From: Candidatus Latescibacterota bacterium
Lineage (GTDB): Bacteria > Krumholzibacteriota > Krumholzibacteriia > G020349025
Length of the DNA: 64,000 nucleotides
Assembly: GCA_020349025.1 (NCBI GenBank)
Contig: CP070763.1
Span: 1,158,753 to 1,222,752 of the forward strand
Reading direction: 5' to 3'
Below are positions 1,479-13,894 of this stretch, one piece after another (the first letter of the stretch is position 1; every line of letters begins with the position of its first letter). The position numbers were made by a program, and so were the translations under genes. A model generated the notes under the pieces. It saw only the letters and a list, made by a program, of their open reading frames with translations. It did no database searches and was not told the DNA's origin.

Positions 1479-2516
1479 ATGCGTCACGAGCTTCCGATCC
1501 CTCCTCACTTCGATCCCGCTCGCGTCGGCGCCGTGTGGCGTGTTCCCTACCGGGAGCGCGCAAGCGAGGCGGCCGCATGGGCGCAGGAGCATGCGATCGA
1601 AGCCGCAGACGGCGATGCGCCTCGGGTTTGCCTCCTGGCCGTCGACGCGCAGAACACGTTTTGCGTGCCGGAGTTCGAGCTCTTCGTTCGCGGCCGCTCC
1701 GGCTTGGGCGCGGTGGAAGACAACATTCGCCTGTGCGAGTTCATTTATCGCAATCTGGGGCGCCTCACTCGGATCGTCGCCACGATGGACACGCACCACG
1801 CGATGCAGATCTTCCACACGTTGTTCCTGGTGGACCAAAAGGGGCAACATCCCGAACCGTTCTCGCTGGTGTCGGCAACGGAGATCGAGGCAGGGCGCTG
1901 GCGCTTCAATCCGCGGCTCGCGCGCGCTCTTCGGATCGACGAGGCGTACGCCAACGCACACCTTCGCCACTACACCCGCGCGCTCGAGAAAAGGGGCCAA
2001 TACGAGCTGACGATCTGGCCTTTCCACTCCATGCTGGGTGGGATCGGACACGCTCTCGTCTCGGCGGTCGAGGAAACCTTCTTCTTTCACGCCATCGCAC
2101 GCAACAGCGCGACACAGTTCGAGGTGAAAGGCGACAACCCGCTGACGGAGCACTACTCCGTGCTGGGGCCGGAAGTCTGCACCGGTCCGGATGGCGAAGC
2201 GATCGCCGTACGCAACGAAGGCCTCGTCGATGCACTCTTCTCGTACGATGCCGTGATCATCGCCGGCCAGGCCAAGAGTCACTGCGTCGCCTGGAGCGTG
2301 GACGACCTTTTGCGCGAGGCGCAGAAAAGCGAAACGCGCTTGGTCGAGAAGATCTACTTGCTCGAAGACTGTACATCTGCGGTCGTCGTCCCCGGCGCGG
2401 TCGACTACAGCGAGCAAGCCGACGCCGCCTTCCGCCGCTTTGCCAGCGCGGGCATGCACGTCGTCCAGTCGACCGACCCCATCGACACGTGGCCCGGGTT
2501 CCCGACGAAGGTGTGA
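1479..2516 (+). CDS. Isochorismatase/nicotinamidase-like cysteine hydrolase
   Basis: 'LLAVDAQNTFC' (catalytic Asp), 'TMDTH', 'IWPFH' and 'IIAGQAKSHCV' (nucleophile Cys); GGAGG Shine-Dalgarno upstream. Confidence 0.85.
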   Translation: MRHELPIPPHFDPARVGAVWRVPYRERASEAAAWAQEHAIEAADGDAPRVCLLAVDAQNTFCVPEFELFVRGRSGLGAVEDNIRLCEFIYRNLGRLTRIVATMDTHHAMQIFHTLFLVDQKGQHPEPFSLVSATEIEAGRWRFNPRLARALRIDEAYANAHLRHYTRALEKRGQYELTIWPFHSMLGGIGHALVSAVEETFFFHAIARNSATQFEVKGDNPLTEHYSVLGPEVCTGPDGEAIAVRNEGLVDALFSYDAVIIAGQAKSHCVAWSVDDLLREAQKSETRLVEKIYLLEDCTSAVVVPGAVDYSEQADAAFRRFASAGMHVVQSTDPIDTWPGFPTKV

Positions 2517-2533
2517 CATGGGAGGTGGAGTGC

Positions 2534-4240
2534 ATGCAGACGCAAGCGTACGATCCGGAGTCCTTCAAGGGGGACAAGCCATTCTGCGACGTCGTCCTGA
2601 AGGGGGGCGTCACGAGCGGCGTGGTCTATCCGCTCGCGATCGTCGAGCTCGCAAGGCGCTACCGGCTGAAGAACATCGGAGGCACGTCTGCGGGCGCGAT
2701 CGCCGCAGCCGTGGCGGCGGCGGCGGAGCGGGCGCGTGACACGGGGGGCTTTCCTCGAGCTGCGGCACTCGCTGATTTCGTGAGCCGCAACCTCCTCTCC
2801 CTGTTTCAACCGCACCCACACCTGCGACCGTTGTTCGAGATCGCCCTCTCCACGCTGCGCGAGACGCGTCCGCGTCTGCGGATCCTGCGCGCGCTTTGGA
2901 CCGCGGCGCGCGGCTATCGCCAAGCGACGCTCCTCGGTCTCGTTCCCGCGATCCTGGCCCTCGTCGCGGCGTGGGCAAGCGCGAACGCGTGGGCGCTCGT
3001 GGCCGCGCTGCTCGCCGCGCCGATCGGGTGCGCGCTCGCACTCGGTTGGCACCTGCACGATGTGGTCGTGCACGAGCTGCCGCGACACGACTTCGGAATC
3101 TGCCCCGGGCTGCGGCAGCCGCGCGCATCGGGCCCGGCGCTGATCGACTGGCTTGCCGATGCTCTCGACGACGTCGCCGGATTGCGGGCGAGCGGGAGAC
3201 CGCTGACGTTCGCCGACCTCTGGGGTTCGAGCCCAGAGGAGCCACGCATCAACTTGGAGATCCTGACGACGAACCTCACCGCAGGTCGTCCGTATCGTGT
3301 TCCGTTTCGCAGGCGTTTTCTCTTTCGTGAGCAGGAGTTCGCGCAACTCTTTCCGCAGCGCATCGTGCGCTGGCTCGTGGATCACTCGCAGCCTTACGCC
3401 GAAGACGCTTCCTATCGCTGGCTTCCGGCCAATGCGGACCTCCCCGTCATCGTTGCCGTGCGCCTCTCGCTCAGCTTCCCGCTCCTGCTGGCGGCGGTCC
3501 CCCTCTACGATCCCGAATTCTGCTTCGAGGGGACGGGGAGCAAGCTTCAACGTTGCTGGTTCAGCGATGGGGGTGTGTGCAGCAACTTCCCGATCCACTT
3601 CTTCGACAGCATCTGGCCGCGCTGGCCCACCTTCGGCTTCAGCCTGGAAGACTTCGAGGAGGGGCGGCATGAGCACCGCGTGCTCCTACCAACCGCTGGC
3701 AGCGCGACGGGAGTGCAGAACTTCAAGCGTGTCGACTCTCTGGGAAGCTTCCTGCAAGCGATCCTGCACGCGATGCAGGGGTGGCGCGACCATTTGCAGA
3801 GCGCCCTACCCGGCTACCGCGAGCGTGTCGTACGCGTGCGGCTGCGGCCGGACGAAGGCGGTCTGAACCTGCACATGCCGCCGCAGCAGATCGAGTCGCT
3901 CAGCGAGCTGGGCGCACAAGCGGGACGAACGCTGCACGAGTTCGAGTGGCCAGCACACCGCTGGCGCCGCTACGTCATCTCGATGGCACGTTTCGAGGGC
4001 ACGCTCGAGCGCATGCGGCGCACGTACGGCACCGCCGACACCCCCAGCGCACTGGCCGAGTTCCTCGAGCGCTACGCGCCGACTCCTCCCTTCGCGCAGA
4101 GCGCGGAGTGGCAGCGCGACGCGCGCGAGGACGCGCTCGATCTCATGCACACGCTGGATCGCTGGCTCGGCCGCACACGCCTGCGCGATGGGGAGATCCC
4201 GAAGCCGGACGTCGACCTGCGCATCACGCCGCAAGTGTAG
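2534..4240 (+). CDS. Patatin-like phospholipase with internal transmembrane hairpin
   Basis: 'LKGGVTSG' oxyanion motif, 'GTSAG' nucleophile, 'SDGG' catalytic Asp; hydrophobic insert. ATG 2534 follows GGAGGTGGAG. The track's longer 1334 start overlaps the previous gene in another frame. Confidence 0.88.
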   Translation: MQTQAYDPESFKGDKPFCDVVLKGGVTSGVVYPLAIVELARRYRLKNIGGTSAGAIAAAVAAAAERARDTGGFPRAAALADFVSRNLLSLFQPHPHLRPLFEIALSTLRETRPRLRILRALWTAARGYRQATLLGLVPAILALVAAWASANAWALVAALLAAPIGCALALGWHLHDVVVHELPRHDFGICPGLRQPRASGPALIDWLADALDDVAGLRASGRPLTFADLWGSSPEEPRINLEILTTNLTAGRPYRVPFRRRFLFREQEFAQLFPQRIVRWLVDHSQPYAEDASYRWLPANADLPVIVAVRLSLSFPLLLAAVPLYDPEFCFEGTGSKLQRCWFSDGGVCSNFPIHFFDSIWPRWPTFGFSLEDFEEGRHEHRVLLPTAGSATGVQNFKRVDSLGSFLQAILHAMQGWRDHLQSALPGYRERVVRVRLRPDEGGLNLHMPPQQIESLSELGAQAGRTLHEFEWPAHRWRRYVISMARFEGTLERMRRTYGTADTPSALAEFLERYAPTPPFAQSAEWQRDAREDALDLMHTLDRWLGRTRLRDGEIPKPDVDLRITPQV

Positions 4241-4276
4241 TCGTGCCGAGTGGCACACGCTGGCTGCGGAGGCTCT

Positions 4277-5476
4277 TCAGGGTGCGGCTCGTTCCTCGTG
4301 GCCGACGCCTGGCAGCGACTCGAGCTGCGATCGCGGCGCTCCGGGGAAAACCGATACGGGCAGCAACAGCGGCACCCACGGATCGGCGGCAGCGGAAGCG
4401 GTGAGGTTGGCGTACTCCTGCCAGCGCGCGCGGAGGTCGGTCCGAATGCGCAGCGCTTGCTCCCTCTTGCCGAGCGCGTCGTAGTAGTCGGCGACGTGGA
4501 GGCCATAGCTCGGACGCGCCGCGTCGAGGTGGGTGACCAGCAACCCGAGAGGGAGCGGTACGTAATGCAAGCCTGCCGCGTGCATGCTCTGGGCGTGGCG
4601 ATCGAGATCGTGCGCCAGAGAGCGGGGCTCGAAGGTCACGAAGAAGGTCACGAGCGCCGCCAGCACCGCGACGGCGAACCAATCACCGCGACGGTGCGTG
4701 CGCCGCCCGGCGCGATAGGTGGCCAGGCGCGCACCATCGAGGGCGTGCGTGATCCACATCAAAGATCCCACGATCGTCGCCGCAAACGCCGCAATGAAGA
4801 GCATCTCGAGCGCGCGCGGGGCGATGGCCCCCGAGCTCGTGAGCTGGTTGCACTTCCAAAGAAGCGGTGCCGTCACGACCATCGCGGCTGCGAGAAGCGT
4901 GAGCCCCGCGTTGCCGACGGCGATCGCCGCGCGACGCGGTGCGGCGCTGACGAGGAGTCCGGCACCGGGCGCCACGAGCCCGAGCAACCCCACGACCGCC
5001 GGGTTCTGCAGCCAGCTTGGCAGGCGCTCGGCGAAGAAACGTGCATCCCAACCGGTCAGGAAGACGCTGCGGCTCCACGCCGCGAACGTGACGCAGAACA
5101 GGAGCGCCGAGACCAGGAGCCACGGCAGGAGCGGCACGCGTCCAGCCGCGAGCCAGCCGGAGAGCACGGGCCACTTCCAGATCATGCCGACCCAGAGCGG
5201 CACACCCAGAAGCCCCAGCAGCGCCCAGACGATTTGCCGACGACCCGTCTGCGTGAGCACGGGCGCTGCCGGTCCGAGGGCGTACGTGAGCAGGAGAAGC
5301 ATGCGTGTCCGGTCCGGCACCGGACCCAGAACGTAATACCCCTCCTCGGTCGACGCCGTCGACTCGCTGGCATGCTCGGCGAAACGACGAGCGCGCTCCA
5401 ACGCCGCCGCACGCTCTGAGTCGCGTAACGACGAGCCGTCGACGTCGATGACCCATTCCTTCTTGCGACCGTGCAT
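4277..5476 (-). CDS. Uncharacterised multi-pass membrane protein (short soluble N-domain, about 7-8 TM, TPR-like C-terminal helices)
   Basis: Hydrophobic segments through the middle; GGAG before ATG 5476; no family recognised with confidence. Confidence 0.65.
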   Translation of the reverse strand: MHGRKKEWVIDVDGSSLRDSERAAALERARRFAEHASESTASTEEGYYVLGPVPDRTRMLLLLTYALGPAAPVLTQTGRRQIVWALLGLLGVPLWVGMIWKWPVLSGWLAAGRVPLLPWLLVSALLFCVTFAAWSRSVFLTGWDARFFAERLPSWLQNPAVVGLLGLVAPGAGLLVSAAPRRAAIAVGNAGLTLLAAAMVVTAPLLWKCNQLTSSGAIAPRALEMLFIAAFAATIVGSLMWITHALDGARLATYRAGRRTHRRGDWFAVAVLAALVTFFVTFEPRSLAHDLDRHAQSMHAAGLHYVPLPLGLLVTHLDAARPSYGLHVADYYDALGKREQALRIRTDLRARWQEYANLTASAAADPWVPLLLPVSVFPGAPRSQLESLPGVGHEERAAP

Positions 5477-5686
5477 GGCAAAGCTCCCGATCCGCGATGC
5501 GGTTTCCTGACGCCGCTCGGCGTGTGGCGTCTGTTTCCACCCTTCAAAGGCAATGCGCATGCCCGGGAGCAGAAGCCCTTCCCGTCCATCCTGAGGACGT
5601 CTTGCGACGTTCGCGGAACTTCATTTTGCGCTTTCTTCGCAGCGGGAATGCGAGACGCCGCGCAGGTCGGCGACGCAGCGGGGCGG

Positions 5687-8600
5687 CTAGGCGTGCCGCG
5701 CCTTTTCCGTGCTGGAGATCCCATCCATGAGGTCGAAGTGACCCGCCAGCACGAGTTGGATGCGACCCGTACGCCATCCGCGCACGCCGTCGCGCACGAG
5801 CGGGGATGGGGATTCGCGATAGCGACGAACCACCGCTTGCCGGCGCCCCTTCGCTTGCGCCAACGCCGCACGCGCTTGCGCGAGCAACGCGCCGCGCCGA
5901 TCGTCCCCCGGCACGCGCTCGGCGGGCTCGTCGGGCTGCGGGATGACGCGCACATGCGCCTGGTAGCGACGGAAGCCGCGACTCCCGGGCGCATCCGGCT
6001 CCTCGTAGACGTGGAGACCATCCTCGGCCGCCAGCAGCGAGTGCGCACCGTAACCAGACACCGCCAGGAGGAAACGATACGGGCTTCCCCCCTCGGAGCG
6101 CCCCGACTCTTCGAGCACGTCGAAGCGCATGCGTCGCTCACGCGCCCAGCTGCGGTACATGTCACCGAGCCGCAGAGCGAAGGCATCGCTCTGCGCGGGC
6201 GGAATCCCGGGGCCGCGCCCCGCCTCCAGGAGCAGGAAGGCCTCGCGCGGGCGATTGTGCGAGACGTCGTCGCACGCGGTCCGCAGCAGGTAGAGCTGTT
6301 GCGCCAGGCGGTGCACCAACTCCTTCGGGTACCTCTGTCGCCGGTGCTCCCCCTTCAGGCGCTGCAGCAACGAGCTGGAGCGCTGCACTCCGGCCTCGAT
6401 GCGGTCGAGATACTCCGCCTCCCCCAGAACGGCGAAGCGGCTGGGCGATTCCCAGAAATCGGCGCTCGACATCAGGTCGAACGACGCCTTCTTCGTCTCC
6501 TGCCACCGCGCACTCGACACGTGCCGGCTGAGCGACTCGACGTGCGATTGCAGCACGTCGATCTCGCCCGAGATCCCCTGCGGCAACAGCACGATCTCTT
6601 CGAGCCGCAGCTGCGCTTCGACCCCGGGCAGGACGACGTCGGGAGTCGGCTCCTCCACCGCGACCTCTTCGCTCTCCGGGCCGGGCAGTGCATCCGGATC
6701 GACGAACTTGACCTCGAGCTGCGTCGCATCCGTGGTCACGAAGAGGAACTGGTCTCCTTGCGGAGCCTGGTGATTGACGATCGTCATCGCCAGTGGTGCG
6801 AGCAGGTAACGCTCGATGGCGCGTTTCAGCGGTCGCGCACCGAGATCCGACGTGAACCCCTTCTCGAGCAGGAAGTCGACGGCTGCGGGCTCCCATTCAA
6901 CCGCCCAGCCGCGATTGCGCAAGCCTCGACGCTCGAAGACGGCTTCGAGCTCGCGCACCAGGATCTCGCGCATCGTCTCGCGCGCCAGCGGCTGGAAGAT
7001 GACGATGCGGTCGATGCGGTTGACGAACTCGCGACGGAAGGCCTTGTCGATGGCGCGCCGCACGATCTCCGGCCGGAAGCCTTCACGAGCACGGGAAAAC
7101 CCCAGGCTGGTGCCGGTGGGAACGAGGCCGCCGAGGTTCGACGTGAGGATGATCGTGGCCTGGCGGAAGTCCGCGAGGTTGCCGCGCCGATCGGTGAGGC
7201 GTCCATCGTCGAACACCTGCAGGAAGAGATCCCAGACGCTCGGGTGCGCCTTCTCGAACTCGTCCAACAACACGACGGAGAAAGGTTGCCTGCGAATCGC
7301 GTCGACGAAGGTGCCATCCGACGCCTCGCTGGCCTGCGCCGGACCCAGGATACGGTCCAACGACTCCGGCGTCTGGAACTCGCTCATGTCGAGACGGATC
7401 ATGCGGTCCGGCGAGCCGAAGAGGAAATCCGCGAGGCTCTTCGCGATCTCGGTCTTGCCCGTTCCCGTTGGACCGGCGAAGAGGAAGACGCCCGGCGGAC
7501 GCGAAGGATCGGTCACCCCCGCTTTGATCATCGCCACGCGCTCCACCAGGCACCCGATCGCTTCCGGTTGGTCGAGCACCTGGGTCTCGAAGTGACGCTG
7601 CAACGCGTGGAGGTCGAGCCTCTCGCGCTCGTCCAGAATGCTGGTCGGCAGACCGGTCAGCTTCGACAGCGACAGGACGAGATCGTTCTTGGTGATCGGG
7701 CCGGGCTCCTCCCCCATGCGCGCCGCCGCTCGCATGCGCTGCAGCGTCAGGCCGAGGAACTGAAGCAGGTTTCCGGGCGCGGCCTTGTCGCCGAGGTACT
7801 GCTGCACCAGCTGCCACGCCTCGCGAATCGTCTCCGGCGCGAAGACCCCGGGGCCATCCTCGCTTTGAGTGCGGGCCCAGTCCTCGGCGAGCGCGAGCGT
7901 GTCGCTGGCCGAAAGCGGCTGGATCCGACAGCTCTCGAGCGCGGTGACACAACCGGGCCGGATCTGGACGAGCCGGTCGTATGCGCCCGGCTGCGTCTTG
8001 CCGAGGACGAGAAGCTCGCCGCGCTCGATGAAGGGCAGAAGCGAGTCGAGCACGCTCGCCTGGCTGTACTGATGTCGGCCCGCCCACGCGAGATGATGAA
8101 AGTCCGGGATCAGCCAGACGATGCGCTTGCGCCCGCAAAGCTGTTGCAGCAGCTTACGCACACGCTCTTCCAGCTCCCCGATGTACTTCTGCCCTGCAAT
8201 GAGCTCGGAGCCACCCGCCTCGAAGACCTCCCACCCCTCCGAGAGCAGACGGTTCAACAGCTTCCAAGCGACCGCGCCTTTGCCGACACCCGCCTCACCA
8301 ATGAGCAGGGCGGAGCGCGGCTTCTCGGCCGCGAGGATGGCGTAGAGCTCGTGAACGCGCGCCTCGAGCTCCGCGTGCGAGATCACGCGGCCATCGGCAT
8401 ACGGCTCCTCCTTGCGCCACAACTTGCCGACGCTCTGCAGGTACTCCCGATCGATACGACTGTACTTCTGCTCTTCCAGCGCCTTGCTCAGGATGGACAG
8501 ACCAGGCTCCGACAAGCGCTCCAGCATCTTCTTGAGATGCTCCACCTCCGACTCGTCGAGGCGCGCCACGTTGTCCCCAAGAATCGGCTGCTCACCCGCC

Positions 8601-9142
8601 TCGAGACGTTTGCGCACGAAGTTGCGCAACGAATCGACCGCGACGGCGGAGTCGAGCCATGCGGGGTGCCGCCGCTCCGCGATGTCGACGAGGACGTCGC
8701 CGATCAGTGGACGCGTGGCCGGCCAGTGCGCCAGGAGCACGCGCATGAGAAAGTACTGCTGGAACGGATTGGAGGGCCCCACCCAGGTGACGATCTCTTC
8801 GGGAAGGGGCTCGAGCGTGCGATTGACCAGCGCCTCGAGAGCCATGTAGGCAATGGCGTCATTCGTGCCACCGGCGTACTGGAGCACTTCCTCCGTCGTG
8901 TACGCGCGCCCGGACAGCATGGAAACGCCGCGGGCGAAGTGGGGATCCTCGGTCAGGTCGCCCGGGTGGGCGACGTCGTAGTTGACGTTGCGCGCGAGCT
9001 CGTAGAGTTGGGTGCCGGTCGCCGGCCCTTCGCTGGGCGGCGTTGCGGGCTCGGGAGTGGCGCGGCCGCGAAACGCCAGGCGCAGGATGGACGCGACGAC
9101 GACCCCCAAGATCACAGCAAGGATCAGGCCCCAGTCTCCCAT
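5687..9142 (-). CDS. Membrane-anchored Clp-type double AAA+ ATPase fused to a release-factor (PCRF)-like C-terminal module
   Basis: N-terminal TM; D1 'GEAGVGKG' and 'AGQKYIGELEER'; D2 'GPTGTGKT', 'RLDMSEF', 'VVLLDEFEKAHP', 'FDDGRLTD', 'FRREFVNRID', 'GARPLKRAIE'. C-terminal ~300 aa resembles RF1/RF2. ATG 9142 has a GGAG SD (track start TTG 9154). Confidence 0.88.
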   Translation of the reverse strand: MGDWGLILAVILGVVVASILRLAFRGRATPEPATPPSEGPATGTQLYELARNVNYDVAHPGDLTEDPHFARGVSMLSGRAYTTEEVLQYAGGTNDAIAYMALEALVNRTLEPLPEEIVTWVGPSNPFQQYFLMRVLLAHWPATRPLIGDVLVDIAERRHPAWLDSAVAVDSLRNFVRKRLEAGEQPILGDNVARLDESEVEHLKKMLERLSEPGLSILSKALEEQKYSRIDREYLQSVGKLWRKEEPYADGRVISHAELEARVHELYAILAAEKPRSALLIGEAGVGKGAVAWKLLNRLLSEGWEVFEAGGSELIAGQKYIGELEERVRKLLQQLCGRKRIVWLIPDFHHLAWAGRHQYSQASVLDSLLPFIERGELLVLGKTQPGAYDRLVQIRPGCVTALESCRIQPLSASDTLALAEDWARTQSEDGPGVFAPETIREAWQLVQQYLGDKAAPGNLLQFLGLTLQRMRAAARMGEEPGPITKNDLVLSLSKLTGLPTSILDERERLDLHALQRHFETQVLDQPEAIGCLVERVAMIKAGVTDPSRPPGVFLFAGPTGTGKTEIAKSLADFLFGSPDRMIRLDMSEFQTPESLDRILGPAQASEASDGTFVDAIRRQPFSVVLLDEFEKAHPSVWDLFLQVFDDGRLTDRRGNLADFRQATIILTSNLGGLVPTGTSLGFSRAREGFRPEIVRRAIDKAFRREFVNRIDRIVIFQPLARETMREILVRELEAVFERRGLRNRGWAVEWEPAAVDFLLEKGFTSDLGARPLKRAIERYLLAPLAMTIVNHQAPQGDQFLFVTTDATQLEVKFVDPDALPGPESEEVAVEEPTPDVVLPGVEAQLRLEEIVLLPQGISGEIDVLQSHVESLSRHVSSARWQETKKASFDLMSSADFWESPSRFAVLGEAEYLDRIEAGVQRSSSLLQRLKGEHRRQRYPKELVHRLAQQLYLLRTACDDVSHNRPREAFLLLEAGRGPGIPPAQSDAFALRLGDMYRSWARERRMRFDVLEESGRSEGGSPYRFLLAVSGYGAHSLLAAEDGLHVYEEPDAPGSRGFRRYQAHVRVIPQPDEPAERVPGDDRRGALLAQARAALAQAKGRRQAVVRRYRESPSPLVRDGVRGWRTGRIQLVLAGHFDLMDGISSTEKARHA

Positions 9143-9170
9143 CAGCGACTCCAATGTCGCGGCTCACCGT

Positions 9171-9179
9171 ACCATAGCA
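9171..9179 (-). promoter_or_regulatory. Extended -10 element (TGCTATGGT) upstream of the Clp-RF gene
   Basis: TGnTAnnnT about 29 nt upstream of ATG 9142. Confidence 0.45.
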
Positions 9180-9199
9180 AATCCCCTGGAACGGCGCGA

Positions 9200-12073
9200 C
9201 TAGCGCGAAACGATCAGCTTGTGCGTTTCGACGCGCTGGCCTGCAGCGAAGCGGTAGAAGTACATGCCGGATGCGAGCCGCACGCCACGGTCGGTCCTGC
9301 CGTCGAAGGGCACGATGTGCGTGCCGGGAGCGAAGCGACGCGCCGCGAGATGCCGCACCGGACGACCGGTGACGTCGTAGATGACGATCTCGATCGGGGT
9401 CTCCCTGTCGAGCCGGAAGAAGATCTGCGTTTTCAAGCCGAACGGATTCGGTGACACCCAGGTTCGTTCGCCGCGGGCGATCGCACCCGCGAGAGCATCC
9501 GTCGGGTTCGGGTCGACGGTCACCGCATCTGTCGCCACGAGCGTGTCGTCACCGCACGCGTTCGCCGTGACCAGCGTCACGGTGTAGGTCCCCTCCGCGG
9601 TGTACGTGTGCGTGGGATTCTGCTCCGTCGACGAGTTGCCGTCGCCGAAGTCCCAGACCCATGCGGATGGATTGTTCGTGGATTCGTCCGTGAACACGAC
9701 CTCGAGGTCGGCAGCACCCGATGTCGGCGCGGCGCTGAACGCCGAGGTGGGGGAGGTCCCCACCGTGATCAGGGCCGGCGCCAGCATCGTATCGCTGCAG
9801 GCGCCGCTCGCTGCGACGAGCATCACGTCGTAGGTGCCGGGGCTGGCGTAATCGTGTGCCGGGTGCTGCTCCGTGGACGTCGCGCCGTCGCCGAAGTCCC
9901 ACGCCCACGTGTCGACGCCCGTCCCGGTCGAGAGATCGGTGAAGCTGACGCTCAGAGACGCGCATCCGGAATCGGGCGCTGCCGAGAATGCCGCGACGAT
10001 GTCGCAGGGCGCAGGCGAGGCCACGACGAGATCCGGCTGGATCAACGTGTCCGCCCCGCACGCGTTCGTTGCCACCAGCCGGACCGTGTAGGTCCCCGCC
10101 GTCGCATAGGTGTGCGTCGGGTTCTGCGCGAAGGAGGTGTTGCCGTCGCCAAAGTCCCACTCCCAGGTCGTCGGGCTCCCCAGGGTGGAATCCGTGAAGG
10201 CGACCAGAAGCGGCACCGGCCCCGTCGTCGGCGTGGCGCCGAAGGCCGCGCTCGGAGTGGTTTCGATGCTCACGAGCGCGGTCGACACCACGGTGTCGGC
10301 ACAGGCCGCGCTCGAGGCGATGAGCCTGACATCGTAGGTGCCCGGCGCGGCGTAGAAGTGCGTCGGGTTCTGCAGCGTCGACGTCGCGCCATCGCCGAAA
10401 TCCCACGCCCACGTGTCGATGCCGGTTCCCGACGACAGGTCGGTGAAGCCGACCGTCAACGTGTCGCAGCCCGATTGCGGCGAGGCCGAGAAGCCCGCGA
10501 CCACATCGCACGTCACACCGCACGCCGCTTCCAACGCCAACCGGGCGTTGGCGATGCCGGAGCCGAGATCCCGCGTGTCGGTGTAGGGCGTGGTGTTGTC
10601 CACGATGAGACTGAACTTTTCGGGTCCGGAGAGGCTCGGGTTGCACGACTCGAGGAGCGCGGCGATGCCGCAGATGTGCGGCGCCGACATCGAGGTGCCG
10701 CTCGACGCTGCGAGGTAATGGTGCGTGGGGTCGGGGTCGTCGGGGTTGCGATAGGTGCTGACGACCTCGGTGCCGGGCGCGGCAACGTCGGCGAACCCGT
10801 GGTTGGTGAAATCGGCGCCGACACCGAGCGTATCGGTGGCGGCCACGTTCATCACACCCGCCTTCCCGCCCAGATAGTCCGGGCTCGACGAGTCGCTGTT
10901 GCCGGCTGCGTGAACCACCATGACGTCACGCGCCAGCAGGGCGTCGACGGCCGCATCGATGCCACCCGAGTTGGACGATCCCCACGAGCAGTTGACCGCG
11001 GTGACGTTGACCCCGGCGTCGACCAGATCCGCGACGTAGTTCATCGCCTGCGCGGCCCAATCCATGCGCACGACCCCTGTGATCGTGAAGGGTTGGACCC
11101 GAGCATGGTAGCCAATGCGAAGCGGGAGGATCTTGACGCCGTTTCCGCTGCCGTTCGAGTTGCCGTCGCTGAATCCACCGGCAACTCCGGCACCGATGAG
11201 CGCATTGTTCGTGAGCGCGCCGACGGTCCCGGCGACGTGCGTGCCGTGTCCGTTGAAGTCGTCCGGGTCGTTGTCGATCTCGCCGCAATCGTCGTCGATA
11301 CAGGTGACCCCGGGGCCACCGGCCGACGAGACGAAGTCGTACCCGATCGTGTCGTCCACGAAGCCGTTCATGTCGTTGTCGGTCTGGTCGCCGGGGGTTT
11401 CGCCCGCATTGACCCAGACGTTGCTGCTGGTGACCGGGTTGTCCGGGCCCCAGATCCCGGCGCCGCCACCGCCGAGATCGATGTGGAAGTAGCGCACCCC
11501 GCTGTCGAGGATGGCGACGACGACATCGGTGCTGCCCGTTTCGATGTCCCACGCCAGGTCGGCATCGATCCCGAAGTCGTCCCAGAGATGCCACTGATCG
11601 AAGGGAAACTGCGGATTGGGCGAGTCCTGGAAGTAGGGGTCGTTCGGTGTTGCGCTCAGCGTATGGATCCCGATCTTTTCGACGCGCTCGACGTTGGGGT
11701 CGGAGGCGAACGCGGCAACCGCGGCCTCGAGGTCGGCATCCGCGGGCAGCTTCACTTTGTAGTGACCCGTCAGGTCCGGGTAGCCGGAGCCGGGCGCCTG
11801 CGCGCGTGCGGTCGGGAACTGCCTGTCGAGACGCTCGACGCCGTGCGCGCGCAGCAGCGCCTGGACGGAGGGGAGCGCCAGAGCGGGTGTGCTCGATCCG
11901 GGCTCGAGCGCCGCGCGGGCGCTGGCGCCAAAGACGACCACGAACTCGTCCTCGACCCATCCCAGGAACGCCGGCGCGGATTGCATCGGGACCCGGACTG
12001 CATACTGCGCAGCTGCGGGCGAAGCGAGCAAAAGCGGCAGGAGCAGCAAGGCTGCACAAGGACGGCTTGGCAT
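9200..12073 (-). CDS. Secreted S8 subtilase with four PKD domains and a C-terminal FlgD-Ig-like sorting domain
   Basis: Signal peptide; triad 'ILDSG', 'GHGTHVAG', 'GTSMSAPH'; four 'WDFGDG...NP.H.Y...GTY' units; tail 'SPNPF...IYDVTGRPVR...DGRTDRGVRLASGMYFYR'. Confidence 0.92.
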   Translation of the reverse strand: MPSRPCAALLLLPLLLASPAAAQYAVRVPMQSAPAFLGWVEDEFVVVFGASARAALEPGSSTPALALPSVQALLRAHGVERLDRQFPTARAQAPGSGYPDLTGHYKVKLPADADLEAAVAAFASDPNVERVEKIGIHTLSATPNDPYFQDSPNPQFPFDQWHLWDDFGIDADLAWDIETGSTDVVVAILDSGVRYFHIDLGGGGAGIWGPDNPVTSSNVWVNAGETPGDQTDNDMNGFVDDTIGYDFVSSAGGPGVTCIDDDCGEIDNDPDDFNGHGTHVAGTVGALTNNALIGAGVAGGFSDGNSNGSGNGVKILPLRIGYHARVQPFTITGVVRMDWAAQAMNYVADLVDAGVNVTAVNCSWGSSNSGGIDAAVDALLARDVMVVHAAGNSDSSSPDYLGGKAGVMNVAATDTLGVGADFTNHGFADVAAPGTEVVSTYRNPDDPDPTHHYLAASSGTSMSAPHICGIAALLESCNPSLSGPEKFSLIVDNTTPYTDTRDLGSGIANARLALEAACGVTCDVVAGFSASPQSGCDTLTVGFTDLSSGTGIDTWAWDFGDGATSTLQNPTHFYAAPGTYDVRLIASSAACADTVVSTALVSIETTPSAAFGATPTTGPVPLLVAFTDSTLGSPTTWEWDFGDGNTSFAQNPTHTYATAGTYTVRLVATNACGADTLIQPDLVVASPAPCDIVAAFSAAPDSGCASLSVSFTDLSTGTGVDTWAWDFGDGATSTEQHPAHDYASPGTYDVMLVAASGACSDTMLAPALITVGTSPTSAFSAAPTSGAADLEVVFTDESTNNPSAWVWDFGDGNSSTEQNPTHTYTAEGTYTVTLVTANACGDDTLVATDAVTVDPNPTDALAGAIARGERTWVSPNPFGLKTQIFFRLDRETPIEIVIYDVTGRPVRHLAARRFAPGTHIVPFDGRTDRGVRLASGMYFYRFAAGQRVETHKLIVSR
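9520..10515 (-). repeat. Four tandem PKD-domain repeats in A-B-A-B arrangement
   Basis: Repeats 1 and 3 share 'FTDLS.GTG.DTWAWDFGDGATST'; repeats 2 and 4 share 'W.WDFGDGN.S..QNPTHTY...GTYTV.LV..NACG.DTL'. Confidence 0.85.
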
Positions 12074-12154
12074 CGGTTCCCCCCGAAGGCCGCCACCTCG
12101 CGGGCGGCGTGAAGATGTGGCGTGCAGCACTCGAACGAAGCTGGTTCCAGGCGA

Positions 12155-12754
12155 TTATAACGCATCGTACGGTGCGAGCGGCGCGCTGCGTGAGGCGCGC
12201 TTGCGCAGGTAGAGAATGGCGATGAAATCGTACGACGCGTGCACCACGATCGGAATGAGCAGATTGTCGAAGAGCATGAAGAGCCCGCCGAGGTAGAGCC
12301 CCGTGACGGTGACGAGCACGACGTAGAGTGGCGTCACGGCGTGCGCCAGGCCGAAGATCAAGCTGGCGACGAGCAGAGCGACGGCGGGATCGAGGGCACG
12401 CGCCAACACGACCTGGATGACGCCGCGGAACAGAGCTTCCTCGCCGGCGCCGGCCAGACAAGACACGAACGCGATGTCGGTCCAGCGCGCATTGCCGAAG
12501 AGGATCTCGACCAGCTCCTCGACCTTGCGGCCGAGACGCTGGAAACCGCTCCAGCTGCTGTGGCTCACCCACACCAGGAGCAGGAGCATCGGCAGCGTGG
12601 CGGCAACCCCCAGAAGAAGCGAGTCGCGGTCGAAGCGCAGGGCCGCGAGGATCGGGGTGTCGAGGATCCAGCCGAGCCCGACCGCCACCACGAGGAGGGC
12701 CCCCTCGAGGAGAAGGGCCAGCCGCAACATGCGGGCGCGTGGAACCGGACTCAA
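12155..12754 (-). CDS. CPBP family intramembrane glutamic endopeptidase (CAAX protease/Abi-like)
   Basis: 'GEEALFRG', 'FGLAH', 'VVHASYD' motifs; TTG start preceded by GAGGAGG. Confidence 0.88.
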   Translation of the reverse strand: MSPVPRARMLRLALLLEGALLVVAVGLGWILDTPILAALRFDRDSLLLGVAATLPMLLLLVWVSHSSWSGFQRLGRKVEELVEILFGNARWTDIAFVSCLAGAGEEALFRGVIQVVLARALDPAVALLVASLIFGLAHAVTPLYVVLVTVTGLYLGGLFMLFDNLLIPIVVHASYDFIAILYLRKRASRSAPLAPYDAL

Positions 12755-12874
12755 ACGACGTCGCCTCCTCTGGGGGCAGGATCGCGCAGCCTGGTGAGTA
12801 CAGTCCAGCACCGGCGTGGCCCCGGGAATGGCGGAGGCGCCCCGGCGGTTACGATGGCAGCGAAAGGGGTCCCC

Positions 12875-13894
12875 ATGCGCGCTCCGCTCACGCCCACCGC
12901 GGCGCTGCTCCTGCTCGCCGGCGCGAGCCTCGCCGCCCGCGCCGAAGACACGCCACGCGGGGTGCAGCAGCTCCTCCCGCGCAACGCCATCGCCTCCATC
13001 GACGATCCGGTGTTCGTACCCGCAGCCGAGGCCAGCATGCCGGACGACGCGTGGATCCTGGGGGTCGTCGTCGGCGACGAGGCGCACGCCTACAGCTTGA
13101 ACCTGCTCAACCGTCACGAGATCGTGAACGACGAGGCGGACGGCAGAGCATTTGCCGCAGTCTGGTGACCTCTGGCCAATACGGCCGTCGTGTACGACCG
13201 CGAGTACAACGGGCAGAGGCTGGAGTTCGAGACCTCGGGCGCACTGTTGAACGCTTCGCTCGTGATGCGTGACCGTCAGACCGACAGCTGGTGGTCGATC
13301 ATGACGGGCGACGCCATCGGCGGCCACATGCAGGGGGAAGCCCTCAAAGAGATGCCGGTCGGCGAGAAGACGACCTTCGGCGAGTGGAAGAAGCAGCATC
13401 CGAACACCTTGGTGCTCTCCGTCGGGGGCCGCGAGCACGACGACCAGGATGCCTACGCCGGCTATTGGGAGTCGGAGCGCACCTTCCGCGGCATGGAGAT
13501 CAGCGACCACAGGATGAAGCCGAAGCAGTCGGTCTACTCGTTCCAGCACGAGAGCGTCGCCTACGCTGCCGCACACGACGACTTCGAGTCCGGGGCGCTC
13601 TTCGCGCTGAAGGGTGAGGAGACGAGACGTGTCGTCCTGTATCGCGAAGCGGGTGCCAGCTTGCATGCTTCGTCGCGTGCGCTCCTCGTTCCCGAGGAGC
13701 TCGTGGCCAAGCAGGACGGTCGAATCTGGTTCCGGAGCGCTGCCTCCCAAGAGTGGGATACGGCGCGTGCGGTCCAGGGCTGGGACGATTTCGATGCTCT
13801 GGCCGGCATCGCCGGTGTGGAGGCGCTCTCCGGCTTCGATACCTTCTGGTACAACTGGGTCAGTGTGCATCCGAACACCGTCATCCTCGACTGA
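12875..13894 (+). CDS. DUF3179 family protein, probable selenoprotein (in-frame UGA at 13166-13168)
   Basis: Track ORFs 12239..13168 and 13190..13894 are in the same frame, joined by W-UGA-P-L-A-N-T-A-V-V-Y-D-R, matching the family's 'xCPLCxxxxxFDR'. Other motifs: 'AIASIDDPVF', 'HEIVND', 'MRDRQTDSWWS..TGDAIGG', 'TTFGEWKKQHPNTLVL', 'FWYNW..HP.T'. Confidence 0.82.
13169..13203 (+). promoter_or_regulatory. Candidate bacterial SECIS hairpin
   Basis: GTCG-TGTA-CGAC stem-loop (13187-13198); the loop starts 22 nt after UGA and has G as its second base. Confidence 0.55.

Follow-up and report, generated by a model that had tools for sequence, protein, structure and literature searches.

A membrane-anchored Clp-type AAA+ ATPase with a release-factor-like C-terminal tail in uncultured bacteria

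Introduction

The known rescue routes for ribosomes (tmRNA, ArfA/B, RqcH, and PrfH-RtcB) use free factors, and most known paralogues derived from release factors (RFs), such as PrfH, ArfB/ICT1, and mtRF1, still act on ribosomes. We know of no case in which bacteria hard-wire an AAA+ motor to an RF-like ribosome probe. In the eukaryotic/archaeal rescue systems Vms1-Cdc48 and Dom34-ABCE1, an ATPase works together with an RF-like protein of the ribosomal A site, which is catalytically dead in the case of Dom34 (Burroughs and Aravind 2019, PMC6514570). A further RF derivative, PrfB3 of Arabidopsis, is a plastid RF2 paralogue that has lost both the SPF and the GGQ motifs and binds the petB 3' untranslated region (PMC5897788). 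Here we describe a bacterial gene whose product, which we call the Clp-RF protein, carries an RF-like tail and a Clp-type ATPase in one polypeptide. The gene lies in a 64,000-nucleotide stretch of DNA, referred to below as the window, from a Candidatus Latescibacterota bacterium (assembly GCA_020349025.1, contig CP070763.1, positions 1,158,753 to 1,222,752). An earlier note on this DNA, made from the sequence alone, had pointed to a Clp ATPase fused to an RF-like module and had suggested that the module is a non-catalytic adaptor that recruits an unfoldase to ribosomes. We are highly confident that the Clp-RF protein has the anatomy of a membrane-anchored, ClpA/ClpC-type double-ring AAA+ ATPase with an RF2-derived tail; its function, unlike its anatomy, is something we infer.

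Results

The Clp-RF gene occupies positions 5687..9142 of the window on the reverse strand, and every feature of the protein given below lies on that strand. Its open reading frame (ORF) extends over 5687-9154, with the stop codon at 5687-5689. Translation probably begins at the ATG at 9142, which has a GGAG 7 nucleotides 5' of it and is also where the database copy begins; from there the product is 1,151 residues long, and a TTG start at 9154 would add 4 residues for a total of 1,155 codons. The GC content at third codon positions of the ORF is 0.85. The span singled out by the earlier note (5687-6620) is the final 311 codons of this ORF. Across the whole protein, Pfam places an AAA domain at residues 283-380, AAA_2 at residues 553-716 (E value, 2.6e-41), ClpB_D2-small at residues 723-802 (E value, 6.5e-15), and the RF domain PCRF at residues 964-1048. 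A full-length AlphaFold model has a predicted local distance difference test score (pLDDT) of 88 and a predicted template-modeling score (pTM) of 0.64, with disorder confined to residues 25-40, a loop bearing the motif LGF at residues 677-683, and a linker at residues 822-842. For the comparisons that follow, we aligned 108 full-length homologs and compared the columns with the host genome's own canonical ClpC (genome positions 2885390-2887855).

The C-terminal 306 residues constitute a class I RF module in which RF domains 1, 2, and 4 are kept. The gathering cut-off of PCRF (PF03462) is 24 bits; the whole protein reaches 28.4 bits, and the last 325 residues, scanned alone, reach 31.4 bits (E value, 2e-7). 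Residues 868-1048 match positions 4-189 of the NCBIfam prfB model (TIGR00020), and a phmmer search of PDB sequences returns RF1 and RF2 at E values from 3.5e-5 to 1e-4, the RF2 alignment covering residues 37-256. A profile of the tail family, built from 28 aligned homolog tails, matches RF2 and RF1 of the host in hhalign with a probability of 98.3% and an E value of 1.1e-13, covering RF2 residues 1-348. When the tail is modeled with AlphaFold2 (pLDDT, 94; pTM, 0.91) and compared with the PDB by Foldseek, all 50 matches listed are of the RF1/RF2 type, including bacterial RF1/RF2 and mitochondrial mtRF1/mtRF1a. The best of them has an E value of 4.4e-13, and the best query-normalized TM score is 0.54, to the free RF2 crystal form 1GQE. 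A single-sequence phmmer search with the tail over the ORFs of the host genome did not recover RF1 or RF2; the family-profile search does recover them, at an E value of about 1e-11, and RF1/RF2 genes in related genomes match the profile at about 1e-11 to 1e-15.

The tail is joined to the D2-small domain by a Pro/Glu-rich linker (residues 815-844; 6611..6700) whose columns are not conserved and whose pLDDT falls below 50 at residues 822-842. Because this linker is disordered in the full-length model, we consider the tail to be flexibly tethered and not packed on the ring. RF-like domain 1 (residues 846-963; 6254..6607), defined by the NCBIfam prfB match, the hhalign alignment with RF2, and the model, is helical, with helices at 2-7, 13-30, 33-46, 57-86, and 95-116 in module numbering. 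It carries the RF2-type "DFW" motif DFWESPSRFAVLGEAEYLDRIE (6395-6460), and F51, W52, R57, E65, and R69 (module numbering) are invariant within it. RF-like domain 2 (residues 964-1071; 5930..6253) contains the PCRF core and aligns with RF2 in hhalign almost without gaps, save for a variable 4-residue insertion in the alpha-5 tip loop (6176-6226), at the point where RF2 has "GG-x-E". In place of the RF2 segment E-x-G-x-HR...SPF stands EDGLHVYEEPDAPG (5984-6025), where hhalign sets RF2 "ISPF" opposite "E-E-P-D" and Pro alone survives from SPF; "RRHTS" is likewise replaced, by "FRRYQ" (5933-5974).

Domain 3, which in RFs comprises about 90 residues including GGQ, is reduced to a remnant consisting of a short linker and one helix, GALLAQARAALAQA (5840..5929). 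The corresponding RF2 residues, ~205-290, are gapped in hhalign except for one helix (residues 237-251 in the model). The RF-1/GGQ domain (PF00472) gives no match at an E value of 10 or below when the tail is scanned alone, and GGQ, like SPF, is found in just 1 of 120 homolog tails. Downstream of this remnant, RF-like domain 4 (5690..5839) aligns with the RF2 C terminus and is made up of VVRRYRESPSPLVRDGVRGWRTGRIQLVLAGHFDL (5729-5833) followed by a terminal helix, with modeled strands at 259-264, 270-273, and 278-280 preceding that helix. This domain is the best-conserved stretch of the family (VRRYRE.PSPLVRD..RGWRTG), its invariant residues being R261, R262, Y263, R264, P267, P269, L270, R272, D273, R279, G281, F291, and D292. 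Seven of its positions (261, 262, 264, 272, 276, 279, and 282) are basic and conserved across the family.

Several properties of the tail follow from this anatomy. Since domain 3 is gone, peptide release and peptidyl-tRNA hydrolysis are excluded, and since all three reading elements (the alpha-5 tip, the SPF loop, and RxHTS) are replaced, so is the reading of stop codons. Relative to the corresponding parts of the host RF2, the tail is more positive by about 12 charges, and the conserved arginines that it has gained suggest a polyanionic partner, namely RNA. Mean column identity is 53% in the tail and 48% over the whole protein; on this measure of sequence conservation, the tail is conserved as strongly as the ATPase and is a selected, working part of the protein. 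The host genome encodes an ordinary RF1, an ordinary RF2, and an ArfB-like protein, and because these are in place, we regard the Clp-RF protein as an extra, specialized factor. As a separate observation, the open frame of the host prfB gene (genome C1:2879191-2880252, outside the window) is without its first ~25 codons, which fits the usual programmed +1 frameshift.

These results bear out most of what the earlier note had read from the letters. The RF-like tail that it placed after the second AAA module is borne out by PCRF, by hhalign against RF2, and by AlphaFold and Foldseek, and every peptide string that it quoted is found in the translation. The scan that it proposed put PF03462 above the cut-off of 24 and PF00472 nowhere, while the structure prediction that it proposed yielded an RF-like fold with a pLDDT of 94. 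It was also right that the GGQ domain is missing (no PF00472 match, GGQ in 1 of 120 tails, RF2 residues ~205-290 gapped), that about 35 residues lie between the "RVIP" and "VVRRY" blocks, and that the SPF/PxT loop is replaced (SPF in 1 of 120 tails, E-P-D opposite SPF in hhalign). Its description of the tail as non-catalytic holds as well: with neither the hydrolase domain nor SPF/PxT, the tail can neither release peptides nor read stop codons. Two features absent from the note's description of this span are the N-terminal membrane anchor and the ClpP-type LGF loop.

The ATPase to which this tail is attached has two dissimilar AAA+ modules. The first, D1 (7703..8332), includes the Pfam AAA match at residues 283-380 and is a pseudo-ATPase. 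Its Walker A motif, GEAGVGKG (8276-8299), is followed by a retained pore loop, AGQKYIGELEER (8162-8197), and by a degenerate Walker B motif, IVWLIPDFHHL (8090-8122). The pore-loop motif AG-x-x-[YF]-x-G-x-x-E-x-R is kept, with the aromatic position occupied by Tyr in 83 and by Phe in 22 of the 108 homologs. Across the family, the Walker B pattern "hhhhDE" has turned into "hhW-h-h-P-[D/N]-F": Pro is present in 98 homologs, position 347 is Asp in 49 and Asn in 39, position 348 is Phe in 100, and there is no Asp-Glu pair. In the alignment with the host ClpC, FIDEL lies opposite LIPDF, and the ERR arginine fingers lie opposite TAL. We conclude that D1 is a non-hydrolyzing ring because both the Asp-Glu pair of Walker B and the arginine fingers are lost. 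Of the 108 homologs, 103 have the Thr/Ser of Walker A and only 2 have Gly in its place, as the window protein does (GVGKG); owing to this replacement, the D1 of the window member is more degenerate than the family norm. By its motifs, then, D1 is a catalytically dead ring that keeps the P-loop and the pore tyrosine.

The second module, D2, together with its D2-small domain (6698..7615; Pfam AAA_2 and ClpB_D2-small, aligned with the host ClpC), is catalytically complete. Walker A (GPTGTGKTE; 7448-7474), Walker B (VVLLDEFEKA; 7247-7276), sensor-1, the Arg finger, and sensor-2 (GARPLKRA; 6818-6841) are all kept, and the catalytic residues are invariant in 55 homologs. What is altered is the pore-1 loop, where the alignment sets GPAQASEASDGT (7310..7345) against GAPPGYVGYDEGG of the host ClpC. 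GYVG is found in this loop in none of the 45 homologs listed. The replacement loop is 8-17 residues long, rich in Ser, Glu, Ala, and Asp, and has a mean net charge of -2.1; it has no aromatic residue in 99 of the 108 homologs and one in the other 9, compared with GAPPGYVGY in ClpC. Because the ring able to hydrolyze ATP lacks an aromatic pore loop and the one that keeps such a loop is unable to hydrolyze, classical hand-over-hand threading by the Clp-RF motor appears unlikely.

D2 also carries a TSLGFS loop (7094..7111), which puts an [LIV]-G-F motif at the ClpP-docking position occupied by IGL in ClpA and LGF in ClpC. GLGF-type loops are the ClpP-docking loops of ClpA, ClpC, and ClpX. The three columns are nearly fixed among the 108 homologs (Leu, Val, or Ile in 101, Gly in 107, and Phe in 108), GLGF of the host ClpC occupies the same alignment columns as S-L-G-F of the Clp-RF protein, and the model leaves the loop disordered, with a pLDDT under 50 for residues 677-683. 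Judged by sequence and position, this is a candidate ClpP-docking loop. The host genome has one clpP gene, far from the Clp-RF gene.

The double ring is of the ClpA/ClpC type in layout, and its NCBIfam scores are far under all equivalog cut-offs. Residues 265-800 match the NCBIfam ClpA model in a single alignment, which scores 292 bits where the equivalog cut-off is 993, and the D1 and D2 Walker A motifs are 275 residues apart, a spacing that we take to be about that of ClpA. For the ClpB equivalog, whose cut-off is 1,232 bits, the score is 314, and the HMMER alignments to ClpB are split, skipping ClpB residues ~420-520. Since the M-domain is missing, the Clp-RF protein is not a ClpB-type disaggregase. 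Pfam and NCBIfam scans of the protein found no M41 metallopeptidase or other peptidase domain.

The N terminus begins with a predicted transmembrane anchor at residues 4-24, WGLILAVILGVVVASILRLAF (9071..9133), which has a Kyte-Doolittle maximum of 2.73 and is helical in the AlphaFold model. A similar hydrophobic N-terminal helix with basic residues is present in 96 of the 108 homologs. The Arg residues that follow the helix argue for an N-out/C-in topology that puts most of the protein on the cytoplasmic side. Just past the anchor, residues 25-40 are disordered in the model. Next comes an all-alpha, repeat-like (HEAT-like) N-domain at residues ~42-270 (8333..9019), which takes the place of Clp_N and is modeled as about 12 helices with pLDDT mostly above 90. 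Pfam gives no match above threshold to the N-domain of the window protein, and sub-threshold HEAT_2 matches appear in the N-domains of 2 of 8 homologs. Clp_N (PF02861) was absent in Pfam scans of both the whole protein and the N-terminal part alone. The host ClpC opens with an N-terminal region unlike that of the Clp-RF protein, and PF02861 is borne by ClpC-family proteins that are 72-92% identical to this host ClpC.

The architecture is widespread. A word-indexed search with the tail found at least 248 proteins of about 1,100-1,300 residues with the same architecture, whose database names are only "AAA family ATPase" or "ClpC". In a profile search of 1.84 billion cluster representatives (clustered at 50% identity), 381 clusters match at E values of 1e-30 or below, 826 at 1e-10 or below, and 2,319 at 1e-3 or below. 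The long matches (~880-1,290 residues) have the RF module at the C terminus or within about 25 residues of it. Among GTDB species genomes, a search built on a 9-sequence alignment confirmed at least 213 loci in many phyla, all from uncultured bacteria. These loci are mainly from Pyrinomonadaceae/Acidobacteriota; other carriers are Gemmatimonadota, Calditrichia, Acidimicrobiia, Planctomycetota, Krumholzibacteriia, Eiseniibacteriota, and several proteobacterial metagenome-assembled genomes. The host is a Krumholzibacteriia-type bacterium, whose ClpC shares 91-92% identity with ClpC of Krumholzibacteria metagenome-assembled genomes. Within the class of the host, true members occur in 6 of 61 genomes, 2 of which are among the 7 genomes of the same family, and the nearest is ~57% identical. 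Because so few genomes of the class carry it, we regard the Clp-RF gene as accessory and patchy in distribution.

We also considered whether the tail exists on its own. Three ~300-residue tail ORFs (L010, L012, and L069) were rejected as stand-alone proteins: their AAA+ part lies upstream in other reading frames, which identifies them as frameshifted copies. Short database matches were rejected as separate tails too, as they end at the protein terminus and look like contig-end fragments.

To describe the gene neighborhoods, ORFs were called in 82 homolog loci and clustered all against all. No neighbor family recurs in more than 4 taxon groups among these loci, which leaves the gene without a conserved operon partner. 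Recurring synteny is limited to Pyrinomonadaceae/Acidobacteriota (about 33 loci), where a TPR-HTH regulator, an M48 peptidase, and an aconitase-like protein are found. Sampled homologs lie in unrelated contexts, including RND efflux, PIG-L, M48 peptidase, and, once, Hen1-Pnkp RNA repair. In this last case (locus L007, positions 3905-11504 of a soil-metagenome contig), the homolog lies 69 nucleotides 3' of a pair encoding a Hen1 methyltransferase and a Pnkp kinase-phosphatase-ligase, with AbiEii, BrnA, and an SNF2 helicase also in the vicinity; the Hen1/Pnkp adjacency is a single case among the 82 loci.

On the 5' side of the Clp-RF gene, the window contains a gene (9200-12130, reverse strand) for a secreted subtilase (Peptidase_S8) that has four PKD domains and, at its C terminus, an FlgD_ig-like tail of ~83 residues, probably a sorting domain. 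The subtilase gene stops about 50 nucleotides short of the Clp-RF gene, and no terminator is predicted in the interval. FlgD_ig-like tails also occur on unrelated ORFs near several homolog loci. On the other side, 126 nucleotides 3' of the Clp-RF gene, lies a gene for a predicted polytopic membrane protein of 427 residues (4277-5560, reverse strand), which has no Pfam or PADLOC match. Beyond it, 1479-4240 on the forward strand is occupied by a 345-residue ORF without a family match and, after it, a patatin-like phospholipase (Pfam Patatin; E value, 7.9e-13), neither of which has a PADLOC match. Apart from the sorting-type tail, these window neighbors (subtilase-PKD, 427-residue membrane protein, and patatin-like protein) do not recur at the homolog loci. 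Farther along the forward strand, a DUF3179 gene is broken into two ORFs that share a frame (12239-13168 and 13190-13894) and match profile positions 2-61 and 74-292 of one Pfam family; the in-frame stop at about 13166 indicates either a selenocysteine codon or a pseudogene.

Discussion

The results presented above led us to consider what a membrane-anchored Clp-type ATPase could do with a codon-blind RF body. By analogy with known RF derivatives, we tentatively propose that the tail targets the machine to ribosomes or rRNA, where D2 would then remodel or extract a component, a reading that we find plausible while stopping short of calling it probable. Docking on ribosomes or rRNA is the best explanation we can offer for the tail because most known RF paralogues act on ribosomes, because the RF shape is retained, as seen in the near-gapless domain 2 and the RF2-specific "DFW" motif of domain 1, and because arginines have been gained. 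In the proposed scheme, six flexibly tethered RF2 bodies, unable to read codons and without a hydrolase domain, would dock a membrane-bound hexamer on ribosomes or rRNA. Docking might take place at the 30S decoding site or at the factor-binding site, and a vacant or aberrant A site is perhaps what is recognized. The modeled flexibility of the tether (pLDDT below 50 at residues 822-842) would suit such a reach-and-dock role. ATP hydrolysis by D2 would then drive remodeling or extraction by a route other than classical hand-over-hand threading, with D1 serving as a static grip, a natural "trap" ring that holds the polypeptide. The LGF loops may link the complex to the one ClpP that the cell has. 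Carried to its most specific form, this reading becomes a membrane-tethered, single-polypeptide, ribosome-directed AAA+ machine of bacteria, comparable in its logic to Dom34-ABCE1 or Vms1-Cdc48, in which codon-blind RF2 bodies without a hydrolase would probe the decoding site of idle or damaged ribosomes or of ribosomes stalled at the membrane, D1 would grip the substrate, the acidic-pored D2 would spend ATP to pull out a basic ribosomal protein or nascent chain, and the LGF loops would pass it to ClpP. We consider this complete picture unlikely to be right in all its parts.

Several findings weigh against a ribosomal role and must be set beside these arguments. The survey of gene neighborhoods that the earlier note had proposed turned up no gene for translation, rescue, or RNA functions as a conserved neighbor in the 82 loci. 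The gene is patchy and dispensable, with 6 of 61 genomes of the class carrying it. All of the codon-reading residues of an RF, as well as the domain that reaches the peptidyl transferase center, are gone, and what remains could bind something else; the plant PrfB3 offers a precedent, by analogy, for an RF2 paralogue without SPF and GGQ that turns into an mRNA binder. In addition, the phrase "recruits an unfoldase" in the earlier note is not to be taken literally because the D2 pore loop and D1 hydrolysis are lost. The Clp-type AAA+ motor has a live D2, but unfolding in the usual manner is doubtful for a protein in which Walker B and the Arg fingers of D1 and the GYVG loop of D2 have disappeared.

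What else, then, might the tail bind? It may be a protein-binding adaptor or regulatory domain, with the RF2 fold reused as a substrate receptor, an oligomerization lid, or an autoinhibitory lid, in which case the machine, tethered to the membrane in the manner of FtsH, would work with ClpP in membrane or envelope proteostasis, without a link to translation. This is possible, if somewhat unlikely, and a good deal speaks for it: the membrane anchor in 96 of 108 homologs, the invariant LGF loop at the ClpP-docking position in a genome with a single clpP, the M48 peptidase among the syntenic neighbors in Pyrinomonadaceae, the loss of every translation-specific RF motif, and the lack of translation genes nearby in the 82 loci. 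However, a near-gapless RF2 shape that includes the dispensable domain 1, together with an arginine-rich patch, exceeds what a generic scaffold would need. The model tethers the tail flexibly and does not pack it on the ring, and the missing D2 pore loop is unlike an ordinary translocase that feeds ClpP. Another reading is that the tail binds RNA other than the ribosomal A site, such as mRNA ends, tRNA, or damaged RNA, and so brings the ATPase or ClpP to ribonucleoproteins at the membrane. The PrfB3 precedent (PMC5897788), the seven conserved basic positions of domain 4, the net charge of the tail of about +12 relative to the host RF2 body, and the homolog 69 nucleotides downstream of the Hen1-Pnkp pair in L007 are all in keeping with this idea. 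Yet that adjacency is found in 1 of 82 loci, no RNA-metabolism neighbor recurs, and Pfam scans reveal no known RNA-binding motif beyond the RF fold, and we judge such a role to be decidedly improbable.

We also asked whether the gene could be a single-gene anti-phage or abortive-infection device in which the tail senses phage-altered translation and the ATPase shuts the cell down. Its patchy spread over many phyla suggests horizontal transfer, L007 is set among AbiEii, BrnA, and an SNF2 helicase, and the PADLOC models DolB and PDC-M37B pick up the AAA_2 region. Those matches are confined, however, to the generic AAA_2 core (residues 513-674), the synteny over about 33 Pyrinomonadaceae/Acidobacteriota loci is stable, unlike that of defense islands, and there is no effector domain. 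PHROGs returns a generic phage Clp-type ATPase family, phrog_4871 (E value, 1e-140), and a sole match of the tail, weak at an E value of 5e-5, to phrog_19918, an unannotated phage family. A defense role is in our estimation very improbable. The earlier note's idea of ribosome hijacking, if read as the work of a mobile element, finds no support: PHROGs and PADLOC give only generic AAA matches and one weak match of the tail. Targeting to ribosomes or rRNA, with remodeling by D2, is the reading that we carry forward.

Our full-text literature search found no paper on a Clp-RF fusion, and the survey of RF evolution by Burroughs and Aravind (2019, PMC6514570), which is centered on the peptidyl-hydrolase domain that is absent here, does not contain it. 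The fusion is an undescribed architecture assembled from known domains, one that the current names "AAA family ATPase" and "ClpC" mask. If the tail docks on ribosomes, the family would establish a new kind of quality control or turnover of ribosomes, one that is located at the membrane and frequent in soil phyla (Acidobacteriota, Gemmatimonadota, Krumholzibacteriota, and others). If it binds another partner, the family would still be a rare reuse of an RF body as a module. Whatever the partner, the combination of a dead D1 that has a pore tyrosine with a live D2 that has none challenges the standard threading model for Clp/Hsp100 proteins.

Full membership of RF1/RF2, ClpA/ClpC, ClpB, and FtsH was considered and in each instance rejected, and the Clp-RF protein has parts in common with every one of them. 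With ClpA and ClpC it shares two AAA+ modules, the D2-small domain, the absence of an M-domain, and the [LIV]-G-F loop; it differs from them in having no Clp_N, a dead D1, and no GYVG in D2, and in the added RF-like tail. A ClpB/Hsp104 disaggregase is ruled out by the missing M-domain and by the score of 314 against 1,232. FtsH resembles it in having an N-terminal membrane anchor on a cytoplasmic AAA+ ring, presumably linked to proteolysis in both, but FtsH has a single ring with an aromatic pore loop and carries its own M41 peptidase, whereas the Clp-RF protein has two Clp-type rings, no peptidase domain, and a ClpP-type docking loop. To RF2 (PrfB), the tail is homologous over domains 1, 2, and 4, with the same fold (Foldseek E value, 4e-13), and it keeps the "DFW" motif, the "E-x-G-x-H" strand, and the domain 4 pattern "R-x-Y...V-x-D-x-R...G-D-x-D". 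It departs from RF2 in its lack of domain 3 and GGQ, in the replacement of SPF, of the alpha-5 "GG-x-E", and of "RxHTS", in being ~12 charges more basic, and in being covalently joined to an 845-residue membrane AAA+ protein, with no peptide release.

The systems introduced at the outset provide looser parallels. Vms1-Cdc48 and Dom34-ABCE1 are functional analogies only: their RF-like proteins have the unrelated eRF1 fold and are polypeptides separate from the ATPase. Moreover, ABCE1 is an ABC-type and not an AAA+ ATPase, and Vms1 is an active hydrolase, in both respects unlike the Clp-RF protein. PrfB3 is similar in that it too is derived from RF2, has lost both functional motifs, and has been kept for a new function. 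PrfB3, however, is a free-standing eukaryotic organellar protein that still has the body of domain 3, whereas in the Clp-RF family domain 3 has been excised, an ATPase has been fused, and the carriers are bacteria.

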